Below are positions 41,541 to 46,315 of a stretch of 64,000 nt of DNA, in pieces. The translations under genes and the position numbers were made by a program. Source of the stretch: an uncultured Planctomycetota bacterium. GTDB taxonomy: Bacteria; Planctomycetota; PLA2; JAEUHO01. The notes below the pieces were generated by a model. It was not told where the DNA came from. It searched no databases and was given only the letters and a program-made list of their open reading frames with translations. Every line of letters begins with the position of its first letter. Within the stretch, counting starts at the first letter, position 1. The stretch lies in the NCBI GenBank assembly GCA_963752285.1, contig CAVVXN010000003.1, forward strand, positions 352,001-416,000, read 5' to 3'.

Positions 41541-41672
41541 GGTCGTGACCGGGGACCGCGCGTCGCCCGTTCGACGCGCGCGACGTGGCGCGTGCAGAGC
41601 TTTTGCACGGCGGGCGTGAACCGACGGGGGCCGAGGGGGGTCGGATCCGTCGCCCCCTTCGGAGATCCCGGC

Positions 41673-42797
41673 ATGAAGACCCCCCGCGTCCTCCCCCTCC
41701 TGGCCCTCCTCCTCGCGCTCCCGCTCTCGGCGAGAGCCGGCGAGAAGGCCGACCCGCCTCCGCCGCGCCCCGTGGACCTCGTGCTCTGCCTCGACACGTC
41801 GGGCAGCATGGAGGGGTTGATCGACGCCGCCCGTCAGAAGCTCTGGGGCGTCGTGTCCGAGCTCGCGAGCGCGAAGCCCACGCCCGATCTCCGCGTCGCG
41901 CTCCTCACGTACGGAAGTCCCGGGAACGACGCCACGGGCCACGTCGTGCTCCAGTCCGGCCTCACCCGCGACCTCGACGGCATCAGCGAGCGCCTCTTCG
42001 CGCTCGGGACGGAGGGCGGCGACGAGTTCGTCGGCCGGGTCACGAAGCACGCCCTCGACCACCTCGCGTGGTCGAGCGACCCGCGGGCCCTGCGCGTCCT
42101 CTTCGTGGCCGGGAACGAGTCGGCCGATCAGGACCAGGCCGCGCCCTTCCGCGACCAGGCGCGCCGCGCCGCCCGCGAGGGGATCGTCGTGAACGCGATC
42201 TACTGCGGCGGTGCCGACGACGCCGACGCCTCCGGCTACCGCGAGCTGGCGGCGCTCGCGAAGGGCCGCTACGCGAGCATCGACCAGAACCACGGCACCG
42301 TGGCCGTCGCGACGCCGTTCGACGCCGAGCTGGCGGAGCTCTCCGAGAAGCTGAACACCACCTACGTCGCCTACGGCCGCGATGCGCCGGCGGCCCTGGA
42401 GCGTCAGTCCGCACAGGACGCGAACGCGGCGGGCGCGGGCGCGCCGGCGGCGGCGGAGCGCGCGGAGGCGAAGGCCGGGCGGCTCTACCGCAACGCCACC
42501 TGGGACCTCGTGGACCGCATGGGCGAAGAGGGCTTCGACCTCGCCAAGGTCCCGCCCGAGGAGCTCCCCGCCGAGATGCGCACGATGACGCTCGAGGAGA
42601 GGAAGGCCCACCTCGAGAAGAAGAAGGCGGAGCGCGCCGGGATCCAGGCGCGGATCCAGGAGCTCGCGAAGGGACGCGAGGCGTACGTCGCGACCGAGAT
42701 GTCGAAGCGCCACCTCGACGACTCGCAGGCCTTCGACCGCGCCCTCGAGGACGCGATCCGCGAGCAGGCGCGCGCGAAGGGCTTCACCTTCGAGTGA
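41673..42797 (+). CDS. Secreted von Willebrand factor A domain protein
   Basis: Signal peptide, MIDAS DTSGSM, GGDEFVG, FVAGNE and C-terminal WDLVD helical extension. Confidence 0.88.
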   Translation: MKTPRVLPLLALLLALPLSARAGEKADPPPPRPVDLVLCLDTSGSMEGLIDAARQKLWGVVSELASAKPTPDLRVALLTYGSPGNDATGHVVLQSGLTRDLDGISERLFALGTEGGDEFVGRVTKHALDHLAWSSDPRALRVLFVAGNESADQDQAAPFRDQARRAAREGIVVNAIYCGGADDADASGYRELAALAKGRYASIDQNHGTVAVATPFDAELAELSEKLNTTYVAYGRDAPAALERQSAQDANAAGAGAPAAAERAEAKAGRLYRNATWDLVDRMGEEGFDLAKVPPEELPAEMRTMTLEERKAHLEKKKAERAGIQARIQELAKGREAYVATEMSKRHLDDSQAFDRALEDAIREQARAKGFTFE

Positions 42798-42837: not shown

Positions 42838-44313
42838 CTACCCGCCGGGCGAGGGCGGCTTCGAACCGTCCTCGCTCGGCGTGATCGTCGGGGCCGGGAG
42901 GATCGGCACGTCCACCCGGAACGCCGCGCGCTCGAGGAAGAGCACCGCGAAGCACGTGTCGAGCAGGTCGGTCGAGTACGCCGACGGACCGCGCATCCAG
43001 CTCCCCAGGAAGGGCGTCGGCGACCAGTGGCCGTCCGCCTTCTCCGCGTCCACGAGCATCGACGCGCCCTCGCGATACCAGTCGTGGGCGCCGAGGAGCT
43101 TCTTCCCCGCGATGACGCACGCTCGCTCCAGCGCGTAGAGGTAGTAGTAGTGCCAGACGGGACCCTCGTGGGGCGGGTTCTGTGCGATCGAGTAGTGGTC
43201 GGAGAGCCACGCGATCGCATCCCAGATGGCGCGGTCGAGGTCGGGGGCGTCCTCCCCCGCTCCGCCGAAGCGCTCGAGCCAGATCGCCTTCACGATCACG
43301 AGCGACGACAGGCCCGCGGCGGTCATCGAGCCGGTGGGGGGGCGGCCCGGGACGTAGCCGAACCCGCGCGCCTCGTCCACCGCGCGCGGCGGCCGCGTGA
43401 CGTTGCCGTACCGCGCGTCGGCTCCGGTGCGCGGGGGGACGGGATCCCACGTGCGGACGACGGAGGGCCCGTGCCCCTCCTGCCAGGCGAGCAGCCGCTT
43501 CGTGATGCGCCCGAGGGTCGCCTTGTCGATCTCGTACCCACAGCGGCTCCCGGCGTAGAGCGCGAGGAGGACGTACTGCGTGTTCGACATGTCCTCGTCG
43601 CCCAGGTCGGCGACGGCGGGCCCGCCCCCCGCGGGCGGGCCGCCGGCGGGCCCGCCGCGGGGACCCGCGGGCGGACCGCCGCGCGGCGCGTCCGGGAGCC
43701 CGCCGGGGTAGCGGAAGAGCCCCGCCTTCGACGCGCCCTCGAGGAGCCAGTCGAGCACGCGGTCGATGATCTCGCGGGCCCAGTCGGGGTAGTGGCAGGG
43801 GTTCCTCCCCTTCTCGATCCCCGCGCCGTAGCGCTCGCGGTCGCGCTTCGCGTTCGCGTCGGGCTCCTCGGCGAAGAGGGTGTGGAGCGCGAGCACGAAG
43901 AGCGAGAGGGAGTAGGCCGACGCCTGCGTCCAGTACTCGCCTTTCATCTGGGAGCGGTAGTGCTTCCGGAGGTACTGGAGGGCCTTCTTGACCTCCGGCC
44001 GGTCGGCCGACCAGCCGGCGTGCGCGAGCGTGTACGTCGCGAGGGCCGTCAGCCCGAACTCGTGCCGGCTCTCCCGCCACGGCCCCGCGGGTCCGTGGCC
44101 CGGCATCTCGAAGGCGCCGTCCGCCTTCTGCGTCGCGGCGACCCACGCCGCGCCGAGGTCGATCGCGCGCTCGATCCGGAGGTGAAGGACGAGGTCCTTC
44201 TTCCGCTGCTCGACGTCCTGGTCGTCCGCGCCGGCGCGCCGCGACGCGAGCAGGAAGGGCAGCGCGAGGAGCAGAGCGGCCAGGAGGACAGGGTGGCGCG
44301 GGCGCACGGACAT
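42838..44313 (-). CDS. Exported prenyltransferase/squalene-oxidase-repeat (alpha/alpha toroid) protein
   Basis: Signal peptide, QKADGAF, DMSNTQYVLLAL, GSMTAAGL, YYYLYALERA, HDWYREGA and DTCFAVLFL. Internal Gly/Pro repeat. Confidence 0.75.
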   Translation of the reverse strand: MSVRPRHPVLLAALLLALPFLLASRRAGADDQDVEQRKKDLVLHLRIERAIDLGAAWVAATQKADGAFEMPGHGPAGPWRESRHEFGLTALATYTLAHAGWSADRPEVKKALQYLRKHYRSQMKGEYWTQASAYSLSLFVLALHTLFAEEPDANAKRDRERYGAGIEKGRNPCHYPDWAREIIDRVLDWLLEGASKAGLFRYPGGLPDAPRGGPPAGPRGGPAGGPPAGGGPAVADLGDEDMSNTQYVLLALYAGSRCGYEIDKATLGRITKRLLAWQEGHGPSVVRTWDPVPPRTGADARYGNVTRPPRAVDEARGFGYVPGRPPTGSMTAAGLSSLVIVKAIWLERFGGAGEDAPDLDRAIWDAIAWLSDHYSIAQNPPHEGPVWHYYYLYALERACVIAGKKLLGAHDWYREGASMLVDAEKADGHWSPTPFLGSWMRGPSAYSTDLLDTCFAVLFLERAAFRVDVPILPAPTITPSEDGSKPPSPGG

Positions 44314-44352
44314 GAGAACGCCCTGGTTCTACCCCGCCCACGCGCGCCCCCC

Positions 44353-44574
44353 GGAAACGAGCCGGGCGAGCTCCCCGTCAGGAGCCCGCCCGGGTGTCTT
44401 CGAAAGGCCGTCCATGGGGTCGGCCAAAAGGCAGCCCCGTCAGTCGGACGGACCTCCCATGACACGTCTACCCATTGATCACCTCCTCTCGAAGCGGGGG
44501 CCGTCGGCCGCCCCCTTGGTCAAGGGGCCCGGCGCCCGTCAGCCACCGGGGTCACGGGGATCGGGTCCGTGACG
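44353..44574 (-). ncRNA. Putative structured small transcript (sRNA or small-peptide mRNA)
   Basis: TAGACT -10-like box at 44581-44586 (minus). Successive hairpins. 13-bp terminal stem at 44362-44393 whose G-U pair works only on the minus strand. CTGACGGG occurs three times. Confidence 0.55.
44440..44475 (-). CDS. 11-aa small ORF MGRRVMGGPSD
   Basis: Preceded by AGGAGGTGATC (44477-44487), complementary to 11 nt of the conserved 16S rRNA 3' end, at optimal spacing. Confidence 0.5.
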   Translation of the reverse strand: MGRRVMGGPSD

Positions 44575-44776
44575 CGCGCGAGTCTACCGGCTGCCCCCGG
44601 CGGCGCTGAGAACCATGTTCCGGACCCGACCCCGTCCGGACTCGACCCCCGGGGCGGACGGGGGCACGGGGCGGTGGACCGCGCGGGGCCCCACCGAACG
44701 GAACGCGAAGGCCGGCGCCCCTGCCGGCGTCCTCGCGTGGGCGATCGGCCGTAGAGTGGCCGCCGGAGGGGTCCGG

Positions 44777-46315
44777 ATGGACGAGCGAGAGGCCGGGCGG
44801 CGCGGGCCCTCGGGCGCGCGGCACCTCGTGGGGCGGGTCGTCGTGCCCCTCGCCGCCCTCCTCGTCTACCTCGCGCTGGACCTCGACCCCGGACACCCCG
44901 CTGTCACGCGGATGGCGGCGGTCGCCGTCCTGATGGCCGGCTGGTGGATCACCGAGGCCGTCCCGATCCCCGCCACCGCGCTCCTGCCCGTCGCGCTCTT
45001 CCCGCTCCTCTCGATCCTCCCGGGCTCCAAGACCGCGAGCCTCTACTTCAACTCGACGATCTTCCTCTTCCTCGGCGGGTTCCTCTTCGCGCTCGCGATG
45101 CAGCGCTACGGCCTCCACCGCCGGATCGCGCTCCGCATCCTCTGCGTCGTCGGCGCCGGGCCCAAGCGGACGCTCCTCGGCTTCATGCTCGCCACGTGGT
45201 TCCTGTCCATGTGGATCTCGAACACCGCGACCACGATGATGATGGTGCCGATGGCGGCGGCCATCGTGTTCCAGCTCCGCGAGTCGTTCGGAAAGGACGC
45301 GGTCGGGCGGTACCCGATCGCTCTCCTCCTCGGCGTCGCCTATGCGGCCTCGATCGGCGGCATCGCGACGCTCATCGGCACGCCGCCGAACCTGTCGTTC
45401 GTCCGGATCCTCAAGATCGTCTTCCCCCAGGCGCCCGAGGTCTCGTTCGCGACGTGGTTCCTCTTCGCGCTGCCCGCCTCGATCGTGCTGCTCGTCGTCG
45501 CGTGGCTCCTGCTCGGCCGGCTCTACGCGCCCGCCCGGGGCGCGCTCCGGGGCGGCGGCGCCCTGTTCGAGGACGCGCTCCGCCGCCTCGGCCCGCGCTC
45601 CCGCGAGGAGACCACGATCCTCGTCCTGTTCGGCGTCCTCGTGTTCCTCTGGATGTTCCGCGCGCCGATCGACCTGGGGGGCGTCCGGGTCCCGGGCTGG
45701 AGCGAGCTCCTCGAGACGCCGTCGTTCGTGGACGACGGCACCGTTGCGATCTTCGTCGCCTCGCTCCTGTTCTGGATCCCCGGTCGCTCCCCGAGCGGTC
45801 GGCTGATGGACTGGGAGGGCGCCGCGGGCCTGCCCTGGGGCATCGTGCTCCTCTTCGGCGGGGGCTTCGCGCTCGCGAGCGGCTTCAAGGAGTCGGGCCT
45901 CTCGGCCTGGCTCGCCGGCCAGCTCGCCTCGCTCGGAAGCCTCCCGCCGCTCCTGCTCGTGGCGGCCGTGTGCCTGCTCATCACGTTCTTGACCGAGCTC
46001 ACCTCCAACACCGCGACCACCGAGATGGTCCTTCCGATCCTCGCGTCGCTCGCGGTGGCGCTCCGGCTGAACCCGCTCCTCCTGATGGTGCCCGCCACGC
46101 TCTCCGCCTCGTGCGCGTTCATGCTCCCGGTCGCGACGCCGCCGAACGCGATCGTCTTCGGCACGAGCGAGGTCGGTATGCGCGACATGGTCCGCGCGGG
46201 CCTCTGGCTGAACCTCGTGGGCGTCCTCGTGGTCACGCTCGCGATGTACACGTTCGGCACGTCCCTCCTGGGCATCGACCCGACGACGCTCCCCGCCTGG
46301 GCCACGCATCCGTAG
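44777..46315 (+). CDS. SLC13/DASS family sodium-coupled anion (di/tricarboxylate or sulfate) symporter
   Basis: WWITEAVPIPATALLP, SMWISNTAT, IGTPPN, TELTSNTAT and FMLPVATPPNAIVF. Confidence 0.93.
   Translation: MDEREAGRRGPSGARHLVGRVVVPLAALLVYLALDLDPGHPAVTRMAAVAVLMAGWWITEAVPIPATALLPVALFPLLSILPGSKTASLYFNSTIFLFLGGFLFALAMQRYGLHRRIALRILCVVGAGPKRTLLGFMLATWFLSMWISNTATTMMMVPMAAAIVFQLRESFGKDAVGRYPIALLLGVAYAASIGGIATLIGTPPNLSFVRILKIVFPQAPEVSFATWFLFALPASIVLLVVAWLLLGRLYAPARGALRGGGALFEDALRRLGPRSREETTILVLFGVLVFLWMFRAPIDLGGVRVPGWSELLETPSFVDDGTVAIFVASLLFWIPGRSPSGRLMDWEGAAGLPWGIVLLFGGGFALASGFKESGLSAWLAGQLASLGSLPPLLLVAAVCLLITFLTELTSNTATTEMVLPILASLAVALRLNPLLLMVPATLSASCAFMLPVATPPNAIVFGTSEVGMRDMVRAGLWLNLVGVLVVTLAMYTFGTSLLGIDPTTLPAWATHP

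Follow-up and report, generated by a model that had tools for sequence, protein, structure and literature searches.

The window analysed here is a stretch of 64,000 nucleotides from an uncultured Planctomycetota bacterium (GCA_963752285.1, contig CAVVXN010000003.1). At 44353-44586 on its minus strand lies what is, judged by sequence and conservation, a real stand-alone, single-copy small RNA gene with a predicted transcription unit of ~215 nt. Read on that strand, the unit contains a conserved -10-like TAGACT, 5' hairpins, an extended Shine-Dalgarno (SD) sequence, an 11-codon ORF, covarying helices and an intrinsic terminator. An initial annotation made by eye had listed features of this kind, and on re-reading all of them were found on the minus strand where it had placed them.

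The -10-like promoter hexamer TAGACT is read directly at 44581-44586 (minus strand), and transcription is predicted to start a few bases downstream, near 44575. In 12 of the 13 relatives with visible upstream sequence, the alignment puts a TAnnnT hexamer (TAGACT, TAGAAT, TAGGAT, TACATT, TAGCGT or TATGCT) at this position. A search for public RNA runs covering 43900-45100 listed none. No -35 element is evident upstream of TAGACT, and a consensus promoter scan returned 0 sites. The 5' domain begins with hairpin H0 (GTCACGG...CCGTGAC, 44551-44573), present in both the MFE and the centroid folds; relatives have a hairpin of different sequence at this position. Hairpin H1 follows at 44528-44550, with the stem CCCGGTG/CGCCGGG and a cap formed by the motif CTGACGGG, whose GACG tetraloop lies at 44537-44540 (direct reading and fold). 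The H1 stem covaries (RNAalifold, 15 relatives), for example at pair 37:49, which is GC in 6, CG in 4 and UG in 2, and an upstream GACG-capped hairpin recurs phylum-wide. Just 5' of the ribosome-binding site there is a variable hairpin region (44496-44527), which in the MFE fold forms CCCCTT-GACC-AAGGGG (44527-44512) or an alternative GGGGGC..GCCCCC. By eye, the hairpins of relatives end in CCCC right before TTCGAAAGG, each with a different sequence.

The extended SD GAGAGGAGGTGATC (44477-44490, minus strand) is complementary to the 3' tail of 16S rRNA, as seen by comparison with the 16S of the same genome, which ends in ...GGATCACCTCCTTTCT. It forms 11 contiguous Watson-Crick pairs with this tail, or 14 if one G-U pair is allowed. 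The 11-nt complement to the 16S 3' end described in the initial annotation is thus borne out: the window holds no other exact copy of AGGAGGTGATC (44487-44477), and its 9 matches with at most one mismatch compare with 0.95 expected. The idea that the extended SD is unique in the genome was rejected. The genome contains 54 copies of GGAGGTGATC where 7.3 are expected; most lie within coding frames, and for 8 of the 54 a start codon is no more than 6 nt away. Downstream of the SD, direct reading gives a mini-ORF of 11 codons and a TGA stop (44440-44475, MGRRVMGGPSD).

The segment at 44416-44443, located by MFE fold and motif search, holds a second CTGACGGG (44436-44443), which overlaps the stop codon, and the hairpin GGGGCTGCC-TTTT-GGCCGACCCC. 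The strand GGACGGCCTTTCGAA (44399-44413) supplies, according to fold and alignment, the 3' strands of two helices described below; its CCTTTC resembles CCUUUC of the 16S tail. Next to it, a conserved GACAC (44394-44398) can pair in the MFE fold with GTGTC of codons 4-5 (44461-44465), a pairing on which covariation is uninformative since GTG and CAC are invariant in alignment A2. The unit ends in an intrinsic terminator (44353-44393) whose stem (44393-44362) covaries in relatives and carries the third CTGACGGG (44374-44381) in its loop region. The terminal stem of the initial annotation is present, and its description as 13 bp with a TGACGG loop is better replaced by a 14-bp stem with a GACG tetraloop, followed by CTCGTTTCC. 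A simple terminator scan called only a minor hairpin (44452-44436) and missed the terminal stem because its T run is short. Terminators are present throughout the relatives, with T5-T8 tracts in the distant ones.

The earlier assignment to the minus strand is supported. The MFE is -124.9 kcal/mol on the minus strand (z -2.55) and -116.6 on the plus strand (z -1.72), the orientations of the T tract and of the ORF both fit the minus strand, and GACGG is in excess on the sense strand of 60 relatives. Taken alone, the fold z-score is modest, and it is the conservation and covariation seen among relatives that decide the matter.

Relatives and covarying helices

The initial annotation had proposed looking for homologues and covariation. 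Relatives were found, and two helices covary strongly in them, helix B and a GACG-capped hairpin (both described below). Covariance models detected the element in 23 of 29 family genomes, in 27 of 40 from the class (the class sample being the same 40 genomes as the order sample) and in 33 of 151 genomes sampled from the phylum, with exactly one copy in each carrier. Among the matches listed in a collection-wide pattern scan, records titled Planctomycetota or Phycisphaerae also carry it; 80 of these loci were examined and 6 are true relatives. Most of the 80 are either strong SDs in front of ordinary genes or E-V-I codons read in frame, and the alphaproteobacterial matches listed by the same scan are not CC2171 genes.

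An SD complementary to the 16S tail is present in the relatives as well. With the caveat that the 16S tail was taken from a single genome (G000) for all 60 copies, their contiguous 16S pairs number 7-18, most often 14. Complementarity of at least 13 nt is found in 33/60 copies, of 13-15 nt in 29/60 and of at least 16 nt in 4/60.

One of the two helices supplied by the 44399-44413 strand, P_a, is specific to the family of the window. Its 5' strand TTCGAGAGG (44485-44493) overlaps the 5' extension of the SD and pairs with CCTTTCGAA (44399-44407). On A2, 92.4% of the P_a cells are paired, with one compensatory G-C to A-U change (L008) and G-U in 7 cells. The 5' strand of the other, helix B, is GGGAGGTCCGTCC (44446-44458), which lies within the ORF and holds an internal SD-like GGAGG; in the MFE fold it pairs with 44402-44413, the 3' strand being GGACGGCC. 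Across 60 sequences helix B has two-sided changes in 6/6 pairs, with 89% of cells paired. The post-ORF capped hairpin enclosed by helix B has them in 5/5 pairs, with 85.6% of cells paired. At this position most relatives form a CC-GACG-GG tetraloop hairpin, a form from which the copy of the window departs.

Taken together, helix B and the capped hairpin have two-sided changes in 11/11 pairs (103 cells). Their cells are paired in 87.5% of cases against 72.7% (sd 0.9) in shuffles, and the observed value was reached in 0/500 shuffles, a control that overstates significance because the sequences are related. When the partners were slid by 1-3 columns, 20.7-45.7% of cells could pair. All these counts come from an alignment fitted to the model. 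A further candidate, helix H3 (GTCC...GGAC around the stop codon), was rejected: on A2, 72% of its cells pair and the compensatory change in L011 favours helix B, which leaves H3 as a possible alternative pairing only. For the 3' half of the ORF there are alternative partners, which lie immediately behind the stop codon or beyond the capped hairpin.

The GACG motif, the mini-ORF and the neighbouring genes

Three copies of CTGACGGG (44374-44381, 44436-44443 and 44535-44542) and five of GACGG in the RNA had been noted before, and both counts were reproduced. The window as a whole contains CTGACGGG 6 times against 6.1 expected by chance, and what stands out is therefore only that three of the copies share a strand and lie within 170 nt of one another. 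Comparison of the 60 relatives indicates that the repeated CTGACGGG is a conserved GACG-tetraloop hairpin motif. GACG-capped hairpins of at least 4 bp are found in 41/60 copies (61 hairpins) and in 0/60 on the opposite strand, and GACGG occurs 129 times sense against 29 antisense. Both closing C-G pairs hardly vary (CG in 48 and 44 of 60), and the motif keeps to two positions, one upstream of the SD and the other immediately behind the ORF.

These regularities fit a non-coding sponge or scaffold RNA, in which two or three GACG hairpins bind protein or RNA and the SD-plus-ORF region is a structure or a dock for the 16S tail that is never translated. The initial annotation had offered a protein sponge with repeated motifs as one option; its motif does correspond to the conserved hairpin, and the lack of a conserved peptide fits as well. 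The same 4-bp rule, however, leaves 19/60 copies without a GACG hairpin, and the reading does not account for the behaviour of the ORF. A start codon stands at SD spacing in 60/60 copies (ATG 36, GTG 21, TTG 3; ATG in the window). By a fixed start rule, the ORF measures 10-12 codons in 51/60 copies and 9-13 in 56/60, while the other frames behave randomly: in a set of 33 copies, all 33 have their first in-frame stop at codon 10-12, and the first stops of the other two frames are scattered. Both indels seen inside the ORF are multiples of three, and TAG, TAA and TGA interchange at one aligned place. A purely untranslated sponge is consequently an unlikely reading, with the qualification that it and a ribosome-coupled mini-mRNA are mutually compatible.

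Stop codon usage is also skewed: the 60 copies end in TAG (34), TAA (17) or TGA (9), and among the long ORFs of the genome (n=1192) TGA accounts for 888 (74%), TAG for 296 and TAA for 8.

That start, stop and frame are all conserved could mean that the 10-12-residue peptide is itself the functional product of a small-peptide gene. A basic pair (RR, RG or KG) recurs at residues 7-8 in most lineages, and the authors of the work on the rre mini-mRNAs discussed below take RreB and RreR to be small proteins that are conserved inside their respective clades (PMC5711450). Yet codon positions 1, 2 and 3 have entropies of 1.07, 0.81 and 0.97 bits, so the third is not the most variable, and at codon 4 arginine and cysteine alternate through a single C/T change (CGT/TGT). 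The basic pair stems from a conserved purine run that is also a strand of helix B and shifts relative to the frame; the internal GGAGG slides by one base among copies. The peptides of different lineages have no alignable sequence in common. To the question raised by the initial annotation, peptide or structure, the 60 copies answer that structure is kept and peptide sequence is not. Given that variability lacks a third-position pattern and that peptides vary from lineage to lineage, the product is probably not the peptide itself, and a functional peptide gene appears highly improbable.

The gene at 42838-44313, which encodes a secreted prenyltransferase/squalene-cyclase-like protein, starts 40 nt downstream of the element on the same strand. 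A homologue comes next in the three loci closest to this one (L001, L002 and L004), SQHop_cyclase_C-like genes follow in L034 and L037, and attenuators classically consist of a short ORF and then a terminator, all of which agrees with the earlier suggestion of a leader for this gene. Elsewhere the association breaks down. The next gene is convergent, on the other strand, in 7/15 family loci, flanking genes are not conserved, and the Pfam families of the neighbours differ across the 60 loci, those across the phylum being unrelated. FTCD and ribosome-GTPase genes are recurrent neighbours. The single copy is kept whatever its neighbours. As the flanking genes of relatives differ and the next gene is often convergent, and with a strong terminator and no conserved anti-terminator pairing seen by eye, a leader or attenuator of 42838-44313 is scarcely credible and that suggestion is not supported.

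A possible ribosome-coupled mechanism

The reading we favour, with a rough probability of 0.65, is that the element would encode, as a gene of its own, a small structured mRNA of the 'rre' type some 215 nt long. Two options of the initial annotation, a small-peptide gene and a ribosome- or 30S-binding RNA, jointly describe such a mini-mRNA (extended SD, ORF conserved in length, rre-like); the part of the first that makes the peptide the product probably falls away.

In the folded RNA the ribosome-binding site and the first six codons form a long single-stranded bulge. In the family of the window, P_a clamps the 5' side of the bulge by joining the 5' part of the SD to CCUUUCGAA, which resembles the 16S tail. 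The 3' clamp is helix B, formed by the purine-rich, SD-like second half of the ORF and a downstream pyrimidine strand, and it encloses the stop codon and the GACG-tetraloop hairpin. From this arrangement we infer a sequence of steps, partly by analogy with rreB. 30S subunits would dock tightly on the extended SD and displace P_a. Translation of the mini-ORF, where it occurs, would have to melt helix B and the capped hairpin and would end at a stop codon readable by RF1. It may be the act of ribosome binding and translation that matters, and not the peptide, by setting the decay of the RNA and the exposure of the GACG hairpins and the pyrimidine strand, so that the RNA would work as a ribosome-coupled regulator or sensor.

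A bolder version, which we consider very unlikely, has the RNA regulate the small ribosomal subunit as a housekeeping function throughout the phylum, doing for ribosomes what 6S RNA does for RNA polymerase. The extended SD would dock on the whole 16S 3' tail, the GACGGG loops would make a second contact and translation of the mini-ORF to an RF1-type stop would serve as release or reset. The GACGGG loops are complementary to the decoding-site strand CCCGUC of 16S, and UGACGGGCG of the window copy matches CGCCCGUCA of the genome's own 16S; the partner of the second contact would be this 16S strand in immature or idle 30S, or a factor that reads the loops. If so, the RNA would signal or gate the maturation of 30S subunits, their idling or the capacity for termination.

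Comparison with known RNA families

At Rfam gathering thresholds the whole window gave 0 matches. With permissive E-values, Pxr, G-CSF_SLDE and sobemo_FSE appeared far below threshold and were set aside as chance. The best Rfam match of the window copy is the Myxococcus family Pxr (RF01812), mostly over the terminal stem-loop, at 24.3 bits against a gathering score of 80 (E 0.058); this resemblance is at chance level and reflects a GC-rich terminator. The verdict of the initial annotation that no known RNA family is present therefore stands for Rfam thresholds, but it overlooks the rre class and a resemblance of some relatives to RF01867 at about half its threshold.

RF01867 (CC2171) is a Caulobacter sRNA family, confirmed by Northern blot in Methylorubrum (bioRxiv 10.1101/2022.01.24.477521). 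The relatives L049 and L040 match it with 38.9 and 38.7 bits (E about 1e-5; gathering score 75), whereas the locus of the window has no match even at E up to 10 and a genuine member scores 88.8 bits. There are likenesses in layout: the RF01867 consensus begins with GAAAGGAGGUGAUCCAGUG, an outer helix forms between early codons of the ORF and the stretch that precedes the terminator, and a terminal hairpin stands at the end. Genuine members, in contrast, begin ~8 nt before the SD and lack 5' hairpins, their ORFs have 22-26 codons and they contain no GACG motif. The resemblance rests largely on the SD stretch and the terminator, and could be convergence, not common descent.

Ribosome-dependent attenuators such as trpL also place a short translated ORF amid alternative helices before an intrinsic terminator, and the liberated attenuator RNA rnTrpL is reported to act in trans too (PMC6614838). 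Unlike them, the element has no conserved downstream operon, regulatory codons or identified anti-terminator.

The closest known kind is the rre mini-mRNAs of alphaproteobacteria, as described by Hahn et al. 2016 (RNA Biol, PMC5711450): rreB of Bradyrhizobiaceae and rreR of Rhodobacterales, both with an extended SD. By that account rreB is a 165-nt mRNA with a 17-nt SD, a 14-codon GTG ORF and a UAA or UAG stop; it co-sediments with 30S subunits, is weakly translated and is stabilised when a stop codon replaces its start codon. The hallmark given there is perfect complementarity of 16-17 nt to the 16S 3' end, which extends into the start codon as far as its first base, and rre genes are reported there from four alphaproteobacterial orders only. 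Our literature search found no extension of rre-type mini-mRNAs to phyla beyond alphaproteobacteria.

The planctomycete element differs from this published picture in several respects. It sits in a different phylum, its ORF of 10-12 codons (51/60) is shorter than any published rre ORF (14-18 codons), and the family of the window starts with ATG where rre genes use GTG. The hallmark of 16-17 nt compares with 11 Watson-Crick pairs in the window copy, and at least 16 nt is found only in the 4 copies counted above. The element has in addition a 5' domain of two to three hairpins, the GACG-tetraloop hairpins and a covarying helix between the 3' half of the ORF and a downstream strand. No similarity between the peptides is apparent, and 30S binding and weak translation, demonstrated for rreB in that work, are here inferred. 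The analogy provides a ribosome-level mechanism and not a physiological role.

There are also likenesses to the published rre description. Both appear as stand-alone small transcripts with their own promoter and terminator, in the present case as predicted from sequence. In both the SD is extended on both sides and pairs with much of the 16S 3' tail, the ORF is very short and ends mostly in UAA or UAG, a conserved helix holds part of the SD, and the genomic context is not conserved beyond close relatives. Phycisphaerae-type copies even share GGAGGTGATCCAGTG, with complementarity that runs into the G of a GTG start.

The planctomycete family adds testable features to this type, namely two covarying helices, a conserved GACG-capped hairpin and a strong stop-codon bias, and its 60 aligned sequences are a basis for an Rfam-grade model of a probable mini-mRNA gene that current annotation of Planctomycetota genomes misses. 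That genomes from many families of a phylum so distant each keep a single copy speaks for a design, combining tight docking on the 16S tail with a tiny frame and an RF1-type stop, that is either ancient or repeatedly invented, and for strong selection on it. Super-long-SD mini-mRNAs are described only from alphaproteobacteria (PMC5711450), and the element would be a structurally richer version of them in a distant phylum.

The window copy and its neighbours

The element lies on the minus strand at 44353-44586, in a 460-nt gap separating two divergent genes. Read in its own direction, it comprises a TAGACT hexamer (44586-44581), three hairpins (44573 to 44512), the Shine-Dalgarno (SD) 11-mer AGGAGGTGATC (44487-44477), an 11-codon ORF (ATG at 44475, TGA at 44442-44440) and a long terminal stem (44393-44362) followed by CTCGTTTCC. 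All of these features had been listed in the initial annotation and were found on the minus strand at these coordinates. The SD had also been called the strongest noticed in the window; the 11-mer has no second exact copy there. A motif count recovered CTGACGGG at the three places claimed for it, but the window total of 6 matches the 6.1 expected by chance, so only the local cluster is out of the ordinary. The choice of the minus strand agrees with the predicted fold energy (-124.9 kcal/mol, z -2.55 against shuffles, versus -116.6 and z -1.72 for the plus strand), although this advantage is modest and by itself unconvincing.

The flanking genes were assigned from the Pfam families of homologous flanks. 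The minus-strand gene (42838-44313) encodes a secreted prenyltransferase/squalene-cyclase-like protein and the plus-strand gene (44615-46315) a DASS/citrate-type permease, whose true start probably lies beyond the first ATG. A putative vWA-like secreted protein (41592-42797, plus strand) was recognised by eye from its translation. The genes neighbouring the element look ordinary; the GC content is 73% and many long spurious ORFs overlap them.

The proposal that the RNA is a leader or attenuator of 42838-44313 was rejected. The flanking genes are common to close relatives only, their Pfam families are diverse over the 60 loci compared, and the downstream neighbour is convergent in 7 of the 15 loci of the family. 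Where upstream sequence is visible (13 relatives), all but one have a TAnnnT hexamer aligned with TAGACT, and a GC-rich hairpin with a T run (as long as T8 in distant members) closes the element in every lineage. Together with the single copy per genome, these features indicate that the element is a stand-alone transcription unit.

Some neighbours do recur. A gene for formiminotransferase-cyclodeaminase (FTCD), or for the cyclodeaminase only, lies directly upstream on the same strand at loci L026, L040, L041, L185, L187, L008, L012 and L013, which come from two genera of the window's family, the sister family and one distant family. This adjacency may be an ancestral arrangement, or may point to a connection with one-carbon/formyl supply. 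In several distant lineages the flanks encode translation or ribosome-assembly proteins: a Der/EngA-like GTPase (L189, L193 and L198, all from one family and therefore not independent cases), RsgA (L194), EF-Tu (L082), a release factor with a GluRS/GlnRS-type synthetase (L199), and bVLRF1 with ValRS (L192).

Distribution in Planctomycetota

BLASTN searches with the intergenic stretch were positive for 14 of the 24 other genomes in the family, for none of the 11 sister-family genomes and for none of 5 genomes drawn from elsewhere in the phylum. Fifteen loci could be aligned over ~220 nt, with near-identical blocks. R1, a covariance model of the element core, matched once and only once in 23 of 29 family genomes (the genome carrying the window included); at the level of the order, whose 40 genomes make up the entire class, 27 had a single match apiece. 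With the broader model R2, single matches were found in 33 of 151 genomes sampled over the phylum, many of them incomplete and with weak matches dropping out under stricter filters; among high-quality genomes the count was 27 of 94. R2 placed the element in all four sampled sister-family genomes and in over 20 additional families.

A pattern scan of species-representative genomes yielded at least six true relatives among the 80 loci examined, in records titled Planctomycetota, Planctomycetaceae, Phycisphaeraceae or Phycisphaerales. A weak R1 match (21.5 bits) falls at 1491-1675 of L076, a Candidatus Krumholzibacteriia record, with GGAGGTGATCCAGTG, a 15-codon ORF and TGACGGGG at the stop; this could represent a distant relative from a different phylum, or chance. 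The pattern-scan match in L107 (a Desulfotomaculum record, ~1424-1600) is a chance hit in CRISPR-array-like repeats (unit ~30 nt, ATTTCAATCCACGCTCTCGCGTAGAGAGCGAC, with spacers) and is unrelated to the element.

Conserved helices, extended Shine-Dalgarno and mini-ORF

Covariation was scored in 60 sequences aligned to R2 for two helices: helix B, formed between the 3' half of the ORF and a strand further downstream (in the window 44446-44458 with 44402-44413, minus strand), and the stem of the hairpin after the stop codon. Standard pairs fill 87.5% of cells against 72.7% (sd 0.9) in shuffles, none of 500 shuffles matching the observed pairing; the R2 alignment was fitted to the tested structure, and kinship of the sequences inflates this control. 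Sliding the partner strand by 1-3 columns, the stronger test since it preserves relatedness, left 20.7-45.7% of cells paired. Two-sided changes occur in all 11 pairs (103 cells); for example, pair 82:194 is UA in 24 sequences, CG in 17, GC in 5 and AU in 2.

The post-ORF hairpin carries a GACG cap, to which the CTGACGGG motif corresponds; the two C-G pairs that close it hardly vary. A second hairpin, lying 50-80 nt before the SD, bears the same cap, as does the terminator in the window's genus. Counting GACG closed by at least four pairs, 41 of the 60 RNAs have one or more such hairpins (61 in total), compared with 0 of 60 on the opposite strand; GACGG itself occurs 129 times in sense and 29 times in antisense. 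The window's cap TGACGGGCG (44535-44543, minus strand) is an exact complement of CGCCCGTCA in the 16S rRNA of the same genome, G000 (contig C5, ~590118), and in most relatives the cap is complementary over 7 nt (GACGGGC). We take this 16S stretch to be the conserved strand of the decoding site, around position 1400. The complementarity could be chance in GC-rich sequence.

In the window's family the 5' extension of the SD, TTCGARAGG, pairs with CCTTTCGAA (helix P_a). Pairing holds in 92.4% of its cells over 15 sequences; a G-C pair is replaced by A-U in a single compensatory change, and G-U pairs occur several times. CCTTTC in its 3' strand resembles the 16S tail. P_a and helix B are mutually compatible in the minimum-free-energy fold of one relative (L005), and in this model would frame a long, doubly clamped bulge containing the SD core, the start codon and about six codons. 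In several lineages the complement of the ORF's 3' half is present twice, right after the stop and past the capped hairpin, so alternative pairings are possible.

The 3' end of the G000 16S rRNA reads ...GGATCACCTCCTTTCT, with which the window copy forms 11 contiguous Watson-Crick pairs, or 14 allowing one G-U. Measured against this one tail for all genomes, contiguous complementarity ranges over 7-18 nt in the 60 copies (14 nt in 14 copies, 15 nt in 9, 16-18 nt in 4). GGAGGTGATC is not rare in G000 (54 copies versus 7.3 expected); most of them fall inside coding frames, and in 8 of the 54 a start codon is found no more than 6 nt away.

Taking the first start codon 4-13 nt past GGAGG, every one of the 60 copies has a mini-ORF (ATG 36, GTG 21, TTG 3), 10-12 codons long in 51 and 9-13 in 56. 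The four outliers have 5, 14, 16 and 33 codons, and an alternative start gives 11-12 codons in three of them. For the first 33 copies, the reading frame always closes at codon 10, 11 or 12, whereas the first stop of the other two frames falls anywhere from 0 to 125 codons. Both indels observed within the ORF are of three bases. Stop codons are TAG (34), TAA (17) or TGA (9), thus TAG or TAA in 51 of 60, against 888 TGA (74.5%), 296 TAG and 8 TAA (0.7%) among 1192 long coding-like ORFs of G000. The copies are related and do not represent 60 independent events; the bias is large despite this kinship.

The small-peptide gene suggested initially stands as regards start, stop and length, but not as regards the peptide sequence, which is unconserved across lineages. 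In 18 distinct 11-codon ORFs of the family the first, second and third codon positions have mean entropies of 1.07, 0.81 and 0.97 bits, without a third-position excess; codon 4 switches between CGT and TGT (Arg/Cys), a conserved purine run (GGAGG, AGAGG or AAGGG) moves by one base relative to the frame, and peptides from different lineages cannot be aligned. The peptide therefore does not look like a selected product. Inspection by eye shows that, in most copies, 6 nt separate the end of this internal SD-like run from the last sense codon.

Comparison with CC2171 and the rre mini-mRNAs

The initial annotation recognised no known RNA family, and in an Rfam scan of the window no family reached its threshold. 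The best local hit, to Pxr, scored 24.3 bits (gathering score 80) and was discarded as an identity. CC2171 (RF01867), a Caulobacter sRNA, had no match in the window copy; two relatives, L049 and L040, scored 38.9 and 38.7 bits (gathering score 75). Its consensus begins with GAAAGGAGGUGAUCCAGUG, and an outer helix ties early ORF codons to the pre-terminator segment. Four of five alphaproteobacterial genomes checked had a match, one above the cut-off (88.8 bits). Unlike the window-type element, these genuine or near members start ~8 nt before the SD and have ORFs of 22-26 codons, no 5' hairpins and no GACG motif. CC2171 is described as of unknown function, with Northern blot confirmation in Methylorubrum (bioRxiv 10.1101/2022.01.24.477521).

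In its predicted working the element most closely parallels the rre genes of alphaproteobacteria, whose function is described as elusive (Hahn et al., PMC5711450). According to that account, the 165-nt mRNA rreB combines 17 nt of 16S-tail complementarity with a 14-codon ORF that starts with GTG; it sediments together with 30S subunits, is weakly translated and is stabilised by start-to-stop codon replacement, and the stops in its published alignment are UAA or UAG only. A limited literature search, including Planctomycetes and Phycisphaerae, returned no report of rreB/rreR or extended-SD mini-mRNAs beyond alphaproteobacteria. Of the options raised initially, a ribosome- or 30S-binding RNA is favoured, jointly with the short gene of the small-peptide option: the extended 16S-complementary SD is present, and 30S docking is suggested by analogy with rreB. 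Combining the element's anatomy with the rreB experiments, we infer that a 30S subunit would dock tightly on the extended SD, that gated translation of the mini-ORF would follow, and that the act of translation, rather than the peptide, would remodel the RNA.

The rre hallmark of at least 16 nt of 16S complementarity is reached by 4 of the 60 copies, the window copy being below it. The ORF of the window's family is shorter than that of rre and starts with ATG, and the element adds a 5' domain, GACG-capped hairpins and helix B. Because of these differences the element, which may share ancestry with the alphaproteobacterial RNAs or may have arisen by convergence, is probably an rre-like variant rather than a member.
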